In this document: positions 1 to 6,000 of the stretch, piece by piece | How the letters are laid out: the number at the start of each line of letters is the position of its first letter | Position numbering within the stretch: position 1 is the first letter of the stretch | Origin: a virus | Lineage: Duplodnaviria; Heunggongvirae; Uroviricota; Caudoviricetes | DNA: 29,019 bases | Strand: one strand, 5' to 3' | Virus record (IMG/VR): IMGVR_UViG_2579778660_000004 | Location: 1 to 29,019 of that record | Position numbers: made by a program

Positions 1-3000
1 CTACGATAACCGCGCATTCAACATAGCTACCTGTTCGTCGTTCATGTCATCAATCCACATACCGTAAATTTCATACACCATCTGCGCAGTTTCATGCCCC
101 ATCTGGCTGGCTATAAATGCCGGGTTCGCTCCTGCCGTCAACAGCCAGCAGGCAAAAGTATGTCGCGTATGGTACGGATTACGGCGGCGAATACCAGCAC
201 GTTTTACTGCTGCATTCCATCTTGCACCCAAACTGCTTACCGAGTAATAAGGTTTCTGTTTTCCGTTACACACTCTGGGCATGAAAACAAAATGCAGTTT
301 TTGCTTTTCGGTTCTACCGTACTCCCGATGATAAAAAGTGATTTCGCTTTTGCGATGATGCCCGGTCAGTTTGTATTGCTCCTTCAGTGCTTCAAGGGCA
401 GGCTGCAGTAGTGTTACCGTCCGGATCCCCGCATTTGTTTTTGGGGGACCGAACATATCAAGTATCGTCAGGTTTCTTCTGACATTCACAATTCCCTTCT
501 CGATATCCACATCCTCCCACGCCAGAGCAGCCAGTTCCCCGTGACGAAGCCCGGAGTAAACGGCAAATTTCCACAAGTTCTGGCTCTGTCCTTTTTCACT
601 TTCCATTAATGCATTGAATTCTGTTTTAGATAACGGGTCAGGCTTTATTCTGTTTCTCTGTAATTTTTTTACTCCTTCAAATGGTTTGGTTGATATAAAT
701 CCCGACTGATACGCAAAACGTAACAACGAACAGAGCAGGGCGATATAGTTATCAACTGTGCGCACGGTTCTTCCTTTTTTGTTGGATCTTGGATTATCCA
801 GGTAAAGCGTTTCTCCATGCAGCAGTTCATTCCGGTAGTTTAAGATATCGCTATAACGAATATGCGATATCGGGGTACTCTCACAAATTATTATCCTGAG
901 TGTTTTTAATTGTGATTTCGTTTTCTTCATTGTGTTTGTTGTTAACTCTGTTTCTTTAATTTTTGTCCAGATATCACAAAGCTCCCCGAACGTTTTTATG
1001 ACCCTCGTTGTCACCATTTTTGCCCCAGTGCTGGACTGGGGAAAACGTCTTAAATACTCAAATTCACCGGAATTGATTTCATGAACTATCAACGCTCTTA
1101 AATTCCCGGCTTTTTTAATGTTACTGTTAGTAACCTCCCAGCCTTTCAATGTTTCCCGACATCGTTTTCCTCGAAACATGAACCAGATGCGAATGTATTT
1201 ACCTCGAATCTCGACACCTGTTGGTAATTTAGACATATCATGAGTCTTTGATAAACTGATTTATCTTTGGATAGTTGTACCAGATAATCCCTCGCTTACT
1301 GTCTGGCTTCCCTAAAGGAGATACTCGTTTGAAGTGGAAGCCTTCCACCCAACAGTTCTGGCGGTATGCTTCAATTTGTCTGGCCCCAAGTCCAGTGCGA
1401 AGCATCAGGCCGTATTCAACCATCCACTCTTCATTAAAGATTACTTGTGCCATCGCATCACCTCTGGCAGGCGCCAATGTTAGACTGAAATTGACGCCCG
1501 ATGTTGATTATTAATAATCAGCTATGAAGTTTTAATTTGAATACAATGCAATTCACGAGGACTGAAGTTTCTCGCAATTAAAATTTATCAGTTTTACTTT
1601 CTGCTCTCTGGAAACGCCTGCTTCTTTTTTACCTGAGAGCATTTTTTCGCATTCTGATTTGGTTAATTTTGTTTTTGAGTACCTTGTCCAGTTAGTAGGA
1701 GTGCCACCTTCCTTTTCAATAGTGGCAGTAATTTTATACATGAACACCTCCATTATTATTTCCAGTAGTTCGTTTATTCCATCTTTCGAGTGCTTCTTTT
1801 TCACTTCCACTATAGCCAGTTCGGGATTCGCATCCGTTACACTTTGCGCGGTAATATCCTGAAATGGCTTTCACCGTTACTGATGGACAACCACAAAACG
1901 GACATGGTTTGACTTTTTCATACCGCATTGTCTTTTCTCTCATAAAATAAAGTTTTGTTATGGCGGTGAGGCTACACCGCCATAGTAAATATCAGGAGCC
2001 GATATATTCTGGTTTCATATCTGTCAGTGTCGTTTTATACGCCTCATATAATTCTCCCAGATGTGGTCGTGCAGCATTCAGCGTATTTTCCAGAGCAGTA
2101 AATTTTTGTTCTGCTTCTGGATCACCTGATGAAGGCAGGTCATTTATCATCTTCTCAATACGGGCAATAGCATTGAGACGGTGATGACGCTGAACTACTT
2201 TTCCTTTAAGTTCTGTGTAGAGAGCGCCAAGTGTATTTTTATGATCTTCCACTTCTTGGCGAAGTGCTGTTGTTTCTCCGGTGCTTTGTGCCTGCTCAAT
2301 ACGTTCACGGAAAGCACTGATCCAGTTTTCCCCGGCATCCTGCTCAATAATTGTTGTTTCACGTTCCGCACGGCAGGCGGATGTGTTTTTATGTTCCTGA
2401 ACCGGATTAATGATTTTTTCCTGTGGTTCGTCCAGTTCGTCCCGGGTGTACACTCCAAGAATCACTTCAGGGCAATAAAGGCGCGCCCAGCGTTTCAGAG
2501 CCAGATAGGCAAGCTGCTGGCGAGGATCATCGGCCCATAACGTTGAGTTACGTGTTCTGGCCTGCGCCAGAAGTAACTCCAGTACGCGTGGCTTGCTCTC
2601 TCCGCGTAGTGTTGCCTGGACGCGAACACCGATCCCGTTTTCATCGGCCAGCTTCCAGCCAGGTACACGATATTCTTTCCCCTTGTCGTTCTTCCTGATT
2701 TCAAATTTCCCGATAATTTTTTCCCACGGCCCGAACCAGTCATATTCAATACGCCCGGTTAGCGGCCCACGAGTACTGATTACGGCATTAACCAGTTGCG
2801 CTTCATATCCGAGCACACCATTCACAACGAAAGTTTTCTGAGCTACTGCGTAAGGGTTCATTTGCCACTGCATCGCCTGCATGGTGATGGCCATGCAGTC
2901 TGATGGATTTCCCCGGAGGTGTTCCGGTACAGTAGCCATGCCGGAAGCCATTACCTGGGAAAATGTCTGAATTGCAGCCAGGGACTGAGGGCTGAAAACC

Positions 3001-6000
3001 GCAACATTAGAGTTAATATTTTCTTGTTGAGTTAATTCGTTCATTGTGTCCTTCCTCAGATGCTCAGTGCTTCAAGACGACGAAGATCAAAGTCGTTTAA
3101 TTCGTCGGTATAACTTTCGGTAATCGGTGCTGGCCAGTTGTTTGTCTCCAGAGCTTCATTTATCTGTCGTAGCGTCCGGCGATATTCCTGTCGACCAAGT
3201 TCCAGGAGTTCCTGCGAGGCTTCCACGATGGCCACCCAGTGATAGCCAGCATCTTTGTTGACGAAGATCCAGAAAAATTTGTCCAGGTTTGCCACATCGC
3301 AATACATTGCTGCGCTGAGGTGATAATCACGCTCAATAATTTCACGGTGCAGGCGATCTTTCAGTCGTTCCTGTCGCACATAACCGAGGCTGACTGACTT
3401 CACGTCGGCGCAAATGCTTTCGTATGGCAGCCGGATTTCGATATCAGGACGGACCCTGATTTCCAGCCCGGTTTCTTCATCAAACCCGAAATAGCTGATT
3501 TCAGATTTGCGATCCGGGTGGTTGAGTAGCCTTGCTGCATCGGTATTGTTTTGCAGTGCAGCGTGAATATTTTTTGCCTGTTCATACATATCCGGACTGA
3601 TAAACGTTTTCCCGGCGTTTTCTTCTTGCTGGCGTTTTTGCCAGTCTTCCAGTGTCACCAGTTCCGGGCGAATTTTCCGTGCGATTTCGGTTAATTGCTC
3701 TTTTGTGCCACTGATGTTGTAAGGCAAAGATTTAGCACGTTCTTTTTTTGCCAGTTCTGGATCTACAGTTTCAATTTGCTCCAGAAGTTGCTCCCGTGAT
3801 CCACTGGTTTTCAACAGAGGAGGGAGGTTTGCGTTGTATTCTTTAATACAGGCTTTCATTGCTGATGCTGTGTGTTTTTCCCCCTCAGGAATACGCCGGA
3901 ATTCCTCCGGAAGCGAACCGTAAAGGATGCCTGTTTCTTCGGCCCCGGCACTTACCGACAGTGGCTGTATAAGAGTGCTGTTGTAGCTTTCGATCCACTC
4001 TTTCATCTGCTCTGGTGTCATCGGTGCTGGCAGACTGGCATTGTGTTTTTTAATGATGGCGATCAGTTCGTTAGAAGTAGTAACCACATATTCAGGAACC
4101 GGTACCGGAATGGCATACTCATCAGCGAATTTATCCGTTTCCAGAACATAGCTGTGAATAATCCGCCCACGCAGCAATGCATCACTTTCCTCGCCCGGAA
4201 TAGTTCCGGCAATGTGTCGTCCGTGGTAATACATCAGGCTGATGCGGGCATCCTTCAGCATTGTGCTGCTTATGCCGTTGGCGGAGTGATAAACCTCGTT
4301 CGGGAGGTTTTCATAGCGGCCAGGCTCGAAATATGACGGCCACATGATTTCAGTTACTACAGGTGCTGTCGCTTCACCAGCTTCATCACTGCAATCGCAA
4401 TGCGGATTGCTGCCAGCGTTCTCCTTGTGCGGATGTTCAGCACCTTCCATTTCCTCCAGACCTTTTTCCTGATATTCATTCTGATTTTCTTCATTCAAGG
4501 TTTTCTGATACGTTGCGTCGCCCATCACCGCGCCGCAGTCAGGACAGTTGCCGCCGCCAGCCTGACCGCAGGCGATGCAAACTATCTCCGTTTCCAGTTG
4601 TTGCACTACTGGCTCAGGCTGTTTCGTTTCTGGCTCGTTTTGTTGCGTATTTGGGCTGTTCTGTTCCGCTTTCTGGTCGTTCTGTTCCGTTTCTGGCTGA
4701 TTCTGGTACACAGAATCGCGGGTCTGGATCCCCTTAACCCATTTCGGATCATTCGGGTCGCTAATCCCTTCAACAAATTCTCCGCGAGAGGCAGCCAGTA
4801 ATTTGTCTGCATCGACAGGATTTTTGGGCGGAATGTTTTTCCGGGCTTCATGGAGTTCTGCCCGCAGTTTCTGATATTTCGCATCAACAGAATTTACCTG
4901 TGACTGAGCATCCAGCGGCTGCGTGTCCTGATGATGTTCAGTTGCATCCGGTTCCACTGTTTCAGCCGTTGCCTGTTCATCTGCCATTGCGCAAGATGGT
5001 TGCAGTTTTTCTTCATCATCCTGTTTTTCTTCTTCTGTTACACGCTGCGGCATCGGGGCAGAGGAACGACCGCAGGCAATATCCACGATTACCGGATCAG
5101 GGTTGGCATGATCAGTTTCAGTCAGTACTTTGTTCAGATATTCAGTGACGTGTGCGGGGATAACCTCGATCCCAATTGGTGCTTCTTTTACGGACGCAAC
5201 CACGATGGCGCGGGAATAATCCAGCCCGCCAGGCATGGTGATGAATTTGTCGCGAAAAACAGAAAAGGGCGGTTTATTTTCAGCGATAATTTCCTCGACA
5301 CGTTTAGCGTGTGCCGGATGAAGGTTATAAATGTCCACGTCCATTGAACGAGCCAGTACGCCAGTGGCTACGTCGCGCGCCAGTGACGTCAGATCGTGAA
5401 CGAAACCTTCGCCGCGATCGGTGAGATTCCCGCCGCCAGCATTAGCGCCGGAAGCTGTGCGCGTGATGCGTGAAACACGATTTCCTTTCATCCACTCTTT
5501 TGTCAGCAGACCGCGATCGGTGTAGTCTGCGTCCAGGTATGCTTCGAAAAAAGCAGTCATCAGCCCCAAGCTTGAATTGCCTGGATTAGGGAAAACTCTG
5601 TCAGTATCACGCACCAGTTTGTGGAGATCGCGAATTTCCAGCGGATCGAGCAGGCTGGTTTTGTGGGAAACAGCCAGGGCTGTAACAGCTGGTAGTTCCT
5701 CAGCCCGTGCAATGTGTAATGCCTGGAGTTCGTCGCGTGAAACGTGCGTTACCGGTTTTTCGCTGCCGTGTTGAGCAAGCCAGCGAATGGGAAGCTCGTG
5801 GCCAGAAATCGGGAGTAGCATATTCTCCTCAATCTCCGTCATGTCTTCGCCATTAACATTGGTATTGTCAGTGCTGGCTGGTTTGTCCTGCGCAGAGGGT
5901 GAGGGCGCGATAAATACCATTGTGATGCCATCTTCCCCGCCTTTTTCGTAACGGTTGCAGAATTCCGTATCAAATACGCCTTCTGGCGGGAGGTCATCAA

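Follow-up and report, generated by a model that had tools for sequence, protein, structure and literature searches.

A divergent RecT-family annealase with a predicted C-terminal helical domain and its probable cognate RecE nuclease domain in a Rac-type Escherichia coli prophage

The 29,019-nucleotide stretch analysed here (positions 1 to 29,019 of IMG/VR virus record IMGVR_UViG_2579778660_000004; hereafter, the window) begins with the left end of a Rac-type Escherichia coli prophage, where the genes lie on the minus strand. Our subject is the pair of recombination genes found there, recE and the gene in the recT position that follows it. The gene order matches that of the K-12 Rac prophage (intR, xisR, DUF1187/rcbA, ralR, the recT slot and recE), and the recT slot is filled by an open reading frame (ORF) for a 350-amino-acid protein, here called the annealase, that begins 11 nt downstream of the recE stop codon, is co-oriented with recE and has its own ribosome-binding site, GGAAGGA (Table 1). 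The original prediction, made from the sequence alone, had described a protein of this size at this position as longer than K-12 RecT and unlike canonical RecT, and had suggested that it might belong to an alternative single-strand annealing protein (SSAP) family paired with a well-conserved RecE, which would bear on recombineering specificity. The ORF and its place on the minus strand are confirmed, as is the difference in length (350 versus 269 amino acids in K-12 RecT); the remaining claims are taken up below.

Profile comparisons place the annealase in the RecT/Redbeta family. Residues 30–209 match the Pfam RecT model PF03837 with 147.9 bits against a cutoff of 24 bits (E = 3.5 × 10−43) and cover profile positions 2–190 of 198; on this model, K-12 RecT reaches 188.9 bits. 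No other Pfam family, those of the ERF, Rad52/Sak and Sak4 types included, matches the annealase at E ≤ 0.1, and all four PHROG matches are RecT-like, among them phrog_561 (‘RecT-like ssDNA annealing protein’, residues 4–349, E = 4 × 10−145). This near-complete RecT match in the core speaks against an alternative SSAP family. The RefSeq protein WP_001774814.1, annotated as ‘RecT family recombinase’, is 100% identical. Of the candidates scored in a protein search, 6,427 are relatives, and the best 120 are all PF03837 proteins of 231–370 amino acids from Enterobacterales that bear the names ‘RecT family recombinase’, ‘recombinase RecT’ or ‘enterohemolysin’, the last of which we treated as a database name only. 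RecT of the Salmonella prophage Gifsy-1 is 48.6% identical to the annealase over its full length, C-terminal domain included.

The distance from canonical RecT had been noticed correctly. BLASTP found no significant similarity between the annealase and K-12 RecT (best E = 0.36), the family alignment reached a probability of 0.3% against K-12 RecT in hhalign, and PDB sequences gave no match to the annealase sequence and none to the family profile (hmmsearch, E ≤ 1); it is therefore the broad Pfam model by itself that makes the link to RecT. At E ≤ 0.01, no NCBIfam model matches the window annealase, Gifsy-1 RecT or TL-2011b RecT. The RecT models NF007351 and TIGR00616 and the Bet model TIGR01913 are thus unmatched by the window annealase, whereas K-12 RecT scores 464.5 and 415.7 bits on the two RecT models (the TIGR00616 ‘rect’ model and the NF007351 equivalog) and matches TIGR01913 weakly. 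Judged by these comparisons, the annealase is a member of a divergent RecT subfamily that includes Gifsy-1 and Gifsy-2 RecT. The locus is an already annotated recombination module of a known subfamily and not a new protein family; the Gifsy prophage relatives have been known since the 1990s. The gene was found in 193 of 5,426 complete E. coli genomes (about 3.6%); the K-12 recT allele, present in 1,749 of them, is about nine times commoner.

The difference from K-12 Rac reaches beyond the annealase gene into recE. By blastn, the window aligns with K-12 Rac at 96% identity over positions 1–1949 and at 88.6% over positions 4372–5867, and the segment between these flanks is an exchanged cassette of 2.4 kb without homology to K-12 Rac, where K-12 has 1.68 kb (L001, positions 4949–6631). 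The cassette contains the entire annealase gene together with recE codons 612–1049, and its right breakpoint (4371/4372) coincides with the start of the nuclease domain at about residue 611/612. For K-12 RecE, the nuclease domain is given as residues 564–866 (PMC11611040).

RecE as a whole matches the NCBIfam equivalog for exodeoxyribonuclease VIII, NF007259, with 1,564 bits against a cutoff of 1,269 bits, a score that comes largely from the K-12-like N-terminal region; its Pfam matches are Exonuc_VIII and DUF3799. Residues of about 106–611 are K-12-like, and in BLASTP identity is high only up to about residue 617. The description of RecE as well conserved holds for this region, and not for the catalytic domain (residues 612–1049), which has been replaced. 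The variant domain is 438 amino acids long compared with 281 in K-12 and shares 30% identity with the K-12 domain over 133 amino acids. It nevertheless matches DUF3799, as the K-12 domain does, as well as the RecE crystal structure in PDB entry 3H4R (E = 4.4 × 10−7), and the residues of its catalytic motif, RPD(921)...D(934)-V-K(936), align with D748, D759 and K761 of K-12 RecE and are kept in all nine nucleases aligned with MAFFT. The difference in length is essentially one insertion of about 155 amino acids (RecE residues of about 705–861) that separates the N-terminal helices from the catalytic core and is absent from the K-12-type nucleases. Full-length relatives of the variant domain occur in Gifsy-1, mEp237, HK225 and the Aeromonas phage pAEv1818 (46–53% identity) and in Rac-SA53 (97%). 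Because the RecE nuclease domain was swapped in the same cassette, we read the annealase and this domain as a cognate pair that was exchanged together and now sits on a K-12-like RecE N-terminal region; the pairing with a conserved K-12-type RecE that had been proposed does not hold.

The nuclease boundary is not the only discontinuity in recE. The first ~110 codons, at the 5′ end of the gene (5868–6197), also have no DNA homology to K-12, and across loci L004–L033 the RecE N-terminal region is 60% to 97% identical while the E. coli nuclease domains are 95–100% identical; recE is therefore mosaic at several points.

A full-length AlphaFold2 (AF2) model of the annealase, built on a 34-sequence alignment, consists of an alpha/beta core of medium confidence, a disordered segment and a confidently modelled helical C-terminal region. 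The disordered segment (predicted local distance difference test (pLDDT) score < 50 over residues 193–237, ~45 amino acids) is variable in both length and sequence in the alignment. Modelled alone, the C-terminal 119 residues reach a pLDDT of 92.4 and a predicted template modelling score of 0.81 and form five helices, at roughly residues 235–251, 255–272, 275–301, 311–329 and 332–348 of the whole protein. The C-terminal ~110 amino acids are thus strongly helical, but the predicted form is a compact five-helix domain on a disordered linker and not the coiled coil that had been described. We refer to it as the C-terminal domain (CTD). Its end carries a conserved D-M-K-P-E-Y that is nearly invariant in the alignment. 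No Pfam family reaches its cutoff on the CTD, and comparison with the Redbeta CTD (PDB 6M9K) and lambda Orf revealed neither fold nor sequence similarity.

A search with residues 210–350 against 1.84 billion cluster representatives matched 50 proteins. Every listed match ends at the protein C-terminus or a few residues short of it, and 10 of the 10 CTD-bearing proteins scanned also match RecT. Long CTD proteins (456–756 amino acids) were considered as carriers of another N-terminal SSAP and rejected, as they have partial RecT matches, two with RecE-derived domains; they look like recE–recT fusions or deletions. In P0136 (546 amino acids) and P0141 (615 amino acids), a single chain combines domains that stem from RecE (DUF3799 or the N-terminus of Exonuc_VIII) with part of a RecT core and the CTD, and both are probably recE/annealase deletion fusions from decaying prophages. 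Standalone CTD genes were likewise rejected: several of the short proteins begin inside the end of the core or the linker (P0121 and P0137 at ‘LGVYT.DELEE’) and therefore look like fragments, and the rest are ambiguous.

The CTD and the nuclease insertion occur together. In a census of 50,697 phage records, 82 have the annealase core, 21 the CTD and 20 the nuclease insertion, and all 20 records with the insertion are among the 21 with the CTD; the one left over, KF879864, stops within the annealase gene, so that its nuclease cannot be assessed. In IMG/VR, the long annealase has the variant nuclease domain, whole or in part, directly upstream in 80 of 80 loci and a K-12-type domain in none.

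Combinations of core, tail and nuclease differ among phages. In the window and in Gifsy-1, a window-type core carries the CTD beside a variant nuclease, and in K-12 Rac a K-12-type core carries its own tail beside a K-12-type nuclease. The annealase of Aeromonas phage pAEv1818 has a K-12-type core (31% identity to K-12 RecT, E = 9 × 10−26; 98 bits on TIGR00616) that bears the CTD (36%, E = 2 × 10−13) and accompanies a variant nuclease (49%). Phages TL-2011b, EC.W1-9 and Tyrion, Klebsiella ST11-OXA245phi3.2 and Yersinia vB_YenM_29.18 have window-type cores (48–63%) with a different shared tail and no CTD, and their nucleases are standalone proteins of 272–273 amino acids that are 49–53% identical to the K-12 domain. 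That tail, which we call tail B, is a conserved ~90-amino-acid segment (...ELDKAYKY...ATDVY.(I/V)R..E(L/M).E..M; loci L084–L087 and L089) related neither to the window CTD nor to the tail of K-12 RecT, and is a candidate second partner-specific tail. A further arrangement is found in loci L024–L033, which are 97% identical to the window in the nuclease and 81–84% in the CTD but only 57–59% in the core that lies between them. These comparisons indicate at least two replacements of the core that separates the CTD from the nuclease, with the CTD and the nuclease kept together each time.

Rates of divergence point in the same direction. In pairwise comparisons of 69 unique loci, divergence in the CTD is more closely correlated with divergence in the nuclease segments (Pearson’s r = 0.87–0.88) than with divergence in its own core (r = 0.68). 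For the insertion (r = 0.88), the partial correlation given the core is 0.78 (Mantel P = 5 × 10−4); the converse partial correlation, CTD versus core given the insertion, is 0.12. Of the segments compared, the CTD and the insertion evolve fastest (mean p-distances of 0.38 and 0.35, compared with 0.21 for the core and 0.24 for the catalytic part). Together, these patterns suggest that the annealase CTD follows the type of nuclease and not the type of annealase core. To this extent the expectation that the unusual protein bears on exonuclease–annealase partner specificity is borne out, with the extra CTD tied to nuclease type by sequence comparison.

One database record carries a near-copy of the module under an unexpected name: PP818812.1, labelled ‘Actinobacillus phage vB_Apl-pPE4’ (hits H16, H81 and H103), is 99.4% identical in the annealase and 95.7% in the nuclease insertion. 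A Pasteurellaceae host would be unusual for this module, and the record may be mislabelled or derive from an induced E. coli prophage.

The explanation that we consider probable is that the annealase is a divergent, functional RecT-family single-strand annealing protein, cognate to the variant nuclease domain encoded upstream and exchanged with it as one cassette, and that the CTD serves as a tether between the two. In the proposed mechanism, the PD-(D/E)XK domain of RecE would resect the ends of double-stranded DNA in the 5′ to 3′ direction, and the annealase core would coat the 3′ overhang and anneal it to complementary single-stranded DNA. The helical 110-amino-acid CTD, on its flexible ~45-amino-acid linker, would tether the annealase to its own nuclease and so favour loading onto the emerging strand, with the contact most likely made through or near the ~155-amino-acid insertion unique to the variant nuclease type. 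For the contact and the loading role we draw on comparative genomics and on the analogy with the Redbeta CTD and Exo of phage lambda. That function is retained in the subfamily is suggested by the Gifsy-1 and Gifsy-2 recET orthologs, which are reported to suppress recombination defects when derepressed (PMC3121763), and is consistent with the purifying selection described below. A more specific proposal, which we hold tentatively and at somewhat less than an even prospect, is that the CTD and the insertion would co-evolve as a docking interface private to this pair and so determine partner specificity, the CTD being a portable adaptor moved between unrelated RecT cores; the cores that bear it are window-type in Enterobacterales and K-12-type in Aeromonas phage pAEv1818.

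Several observations weigh against the main explanation. CTD divergence correlates about equally (0.87–0.88) with all three nuclease segments, so that the insertion is singled out by presence and absence alone. Shared ancestry inflates both the co-occurrence and the correlation; the independent lineages number perhaps five to seven, and a single core-swap event (L024–L033) contributes many of the sequence pairs. Annealases beside K-12-type nucleases bear either tail B or the tail of K-12 RecT, which are unrelated to each other, and tail type is therefore not one-to-one with nuclease type. Fold searches with the mediocre AF2 core model recovered no RecT, Redbeta or Rad52. In AlphaFold3 models from the ETfinder study, some RecT–RecE pairs touch via a short C-terminal element only, and the same study suggests that extended bundles may serve the protein SSB, which binds single-stranded DNA, or other factors (PMC13490951). 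This leads to a different reading of the CTD, in which it is no nuclease adaptor but mainly couples the annealase to host SSB or to another host or phage factor, or drives or regulates oligomerisation, and its co-occurrence with the insertion reflects inheritance of a linked block. The near-invariant D-M-K-P-E-Y at its end is what would be expected of a short peptide-type interaction motif, the CTD/insertion lineages are few and linked, and the Redbeta CTD itself binds SSB as well, via an overlapping site (PMC11611040). This reading fits poorly, however, with the distribution of the domain: in hosts as unlike one another as E. coli, Salmonella, Klebsiella and Aeromonas, the CTD is found only alongside an insertion-bearing nuclease, and phages of the same hosts that combine the same core with a K-12-type nuclease (TL-2011b, EC.W1-9 and Klebsiella ST11) are without it. 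Nor would it account readily for the repeated replacement of the core between a CTD and a nuclease that were kept together. We regard this reading as unlikely, and the nuclease tether as the better account of the CTD.

Two further readings concern the annealase gene as a whole. A decaying, non-functional remnant in a defective prophage might be suspected, because the window prophage has apparently lost most structural genes relative to the prophage of E. coli STEC367 (see below), and some database members of the family are truncated or are recE–recT fusion products; recET of K-12 Rac is silent unless activated (sbcA mutations). The window ORF is nevertheless intact and has a good ribosome-binding site, and at least 80% of the gene is covered in 163 of the 193 matching E. 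coli genomes. Among 14 distinct E. coli alleles (synonymous polymorphism, pS, of ~0.09), the ratio of non-synonymous to synonymous polymorphism (pN/pS) is 0.05 overall, 0.018 in the core, 0.025 in the linker and 0.107 in the CTD; for the nuclease domain (23 alleles) it is 0.135, with 0.22 in the insertion and 0.07 in the catalytic part. These low values in both genes indicate purifying selection and not decay, and make a remnant very improbable. Least probable of all is the reading from which the analysis set out, a non-RecT SSAP (ERF, Rad52/Sak, Sak4 or a new family) standing in a non-cognate pair beside a conserved K-12-type RecE. The missing BLASTP and hhalign similarity to K-12 RecT and the lack of an NCBIfam RecT/Bet or PDB sequence match are compatible with such a protein, but the Pfam RecT match is near full length and has no competitor at E ≤ 0.1, the four PHROG matches agree with it, and the annealase is accompanied everywhere examined by a RecE nuclease domain that does not resemble that of K-12.

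Compared with K-12 Rac RecE and RecT, the window module belongs to the same type of prophage, with the same integration neighbourhood (the ttcA side) and gene order. Both annealases match Pfam RecT, both nucleases match DUF3799 and 3H4R and share the D...D-x-K motif, and the RecE region retained outside the cassette is similar at the DNA level. The two differ in that the window annealase is 81 amino acids longer, has a predicted structured 110-amino-acid CTD and shows no detectable pairwise similarity to K-12 RecT, and in that the window nuclease has the insertion and only ~30% identity in its catalytic part. The RecE and RecT proteins of Gifsy-1 and Gifsy-2 have the same architecture as the window pair throughout (RecE 45.6% identical over 605 amino acids, insertion included) but have diverged by ~50% in sequence; in the N-terminal region of RecE, which is K-12-like in the window, identity to Gifsy is only ~32%. 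We found no biochemical data on the CTD of the window or Gifsy annealase in the literature. The Rac-like prophage Rac-SA53 (KU052037), which encodes LT-II (heat-labile enterotoxin of type II), has nearly the same RecE nuclease domain as the window; its annealase CTD is only 83% identical, in line with loci L024–L033.

The proposed tether resembles in its logic the system of phage lambda (6M9K), in which a flexible linker likewise joins the annealase core of Redbeta to a small CTD made of helices; the Redbeta CTD binds the partner exonuclease, and also SSB, and loads the annealase during resection (PMC11611040). The 2026 ETfinder paper in NAR distinguishes three classes of RecT C-terminus, a compact bundle, a disordered tail and an ‘extended helical bundle’, all of which support recombination of double-stranded DNA; in its view the extension may offer additional surfaces for coupling, and which partner the extended bundle has is left open (PMC13490951). 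The window CTD, a multi-helix bundle that follows a RecT core, agrees with the description of the extended class; what differs here is that comparative genomics ties this extension to a segment inserted into the nuclease domain.

Table 1. Features at the left end of the window, with positions in window coordinates.
Feature	Position	Strand	Basis or remark
Integrase	1–1236	minus	
Excisionase, DUF1233	1238–1477	minus	
DUF1187 protein	1553–1810	minus	
Lar/RalR-type protein	1734–1943	minus	
Exchanged cassette, no homology to K-12 Rac	1950–4371		blastn of the window against K-12 Rac
Annealase gene, 350 amino acids	1992–3044	minus	ORF; Pfam RecT; phrog_561; RefSeq identity; pN/pS
C-terminal five-helix domain (CTD), residues 238–350	1995–2333	minus	AF2; proposed nuclease-docking adaptor
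Variable, predicted-disordered linker, residues 210–237	2334–2417	minus	AF2 low confidence over 193–237; alignment variability
RecT core, predicted ssDNA-annealing domain, residues 30–209	2418–2957	minus	PF03837; AF2 alpha/beta core
Intergenic spacer with Shine–Dalgarno GGAAGGA	3045–3055	minus	Between recE stop and annealase ATG; sequence read directly
recE (exonuclease VIII), 1,049 amino acids, mosaic gene	3056–6205	minus	NF007259; Pfam Exonuc_VIII and DUF3799; BLASTP against K-12 RecE
Variant RecE nuclease domain, residues 612–1049, PD-(D/E)XK type	3059–4372	minus	BLASTP; DUF3799; 3H4R
Catalytic motif RPD(921)...D(934)-V-K(936)	3398–3445	minus	Aligns with K-12 D748/D759/K761 (BLASTP, phmmer)
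Nuclease insertion of ~155 amino acids, RecE ~705–861	3623–4093	minus	MAFFT, nine nuclease domains; absent from K-12-type nucleases

A perfect inverted repeat of 9 bp (ATGGCGGTG, a 6-nt loop, CACCGCCAT) lies on the minus strand at 1960–1983, just past the annealase stop codon, just inside the left cassette boundary (1949/1950) and upstream of the ralR start. It is doubtful as a terminator because no run of T follows immediately, and it may be an RNA-stability element or mark a recombination junction.

The wider prophage is closely related to that of E. coli STEC367, located beside ttcA, which is 99.97–99.99% identical to window positions 1–26324. The identity stops at 26324/26325, inside a gene annotated in STEC367 as encoding an Acb1-family protein, and the final 2.7 kb (26325–29019), a tail-fibre N-terminal/DUF4376 region, is 100% identical to STEC383, STEC276 and STEC1575. 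Because the STEC367 identity ends there, most of the head and tail genes of STEC367 appear to have been lost from the window prophage, which is probably defective. Its late region holds two toxin pairs of low GC content (0.38–0.40) on the plus strand. One (within 19620–20838) comprises a pertussis-toxin-S1/scabin-like ADP-ribosyltransferase (19620–20345; PF02917, E = 4 × 10−15) and a downstream ORF that is an AB5 B subunit by the STEC367 annotation and has no Pfam match here. The other (22192–23332) encodes the A (PF01375, E = 6 × 10−130) and B (PF06453, E = 1 × 10−75) subunits of a heat-labile enterotoxin of type II. LT-II and pertussis-like toxins have been reported on Rac-like prophages (PMC5917428), and the window, like Rac-SA53, agrees with this. 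The STEC367 annotation also marks two partial pseudogene pieces by PGAP at about 9466–9906 and 10276–10590 (L002, 19475–19915 and 20285–20599), which lie ~370 bp apart between ydaT and ydaV, in the kilobase with the highest GC content of the window (0.55). Between the Q-antiterminator region and the late genes, the same annotation (L092) places a toxin gene of the Hok/Gef family and an IS4-like IS421 transposase (about 15739–15894 and 16088–17200).

The Rac variant in the window is not K-12 RecE plus a foreign annealase and is best described as an alternative RecET module that is complete. The boundary of this module lies within recE, where the nuclease domain starts. The label ‘RecE’ for the whole 1,049-amino-acid protein hides a catalytic domain of a different type, and when recET is cloned from such strains for recombineering, the nuclease domain and the annealase should be taken together. 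The novelty is low and the biology ordinary; the strict pairing of CTD and insertion may add one modest comparative point. Reviews describe how RecT annealases recognise their exonuclease as unknown (PMC11611040), and the strict co-occurrence offers a concrete candidate interface for RecE–RecT recognition. If the docking-interface proposal is true, it would answer how RecT-type annealases recognise their RecE partners, and pairs of CTD and insertion could be grafted to give orthogonal RecET pairs.

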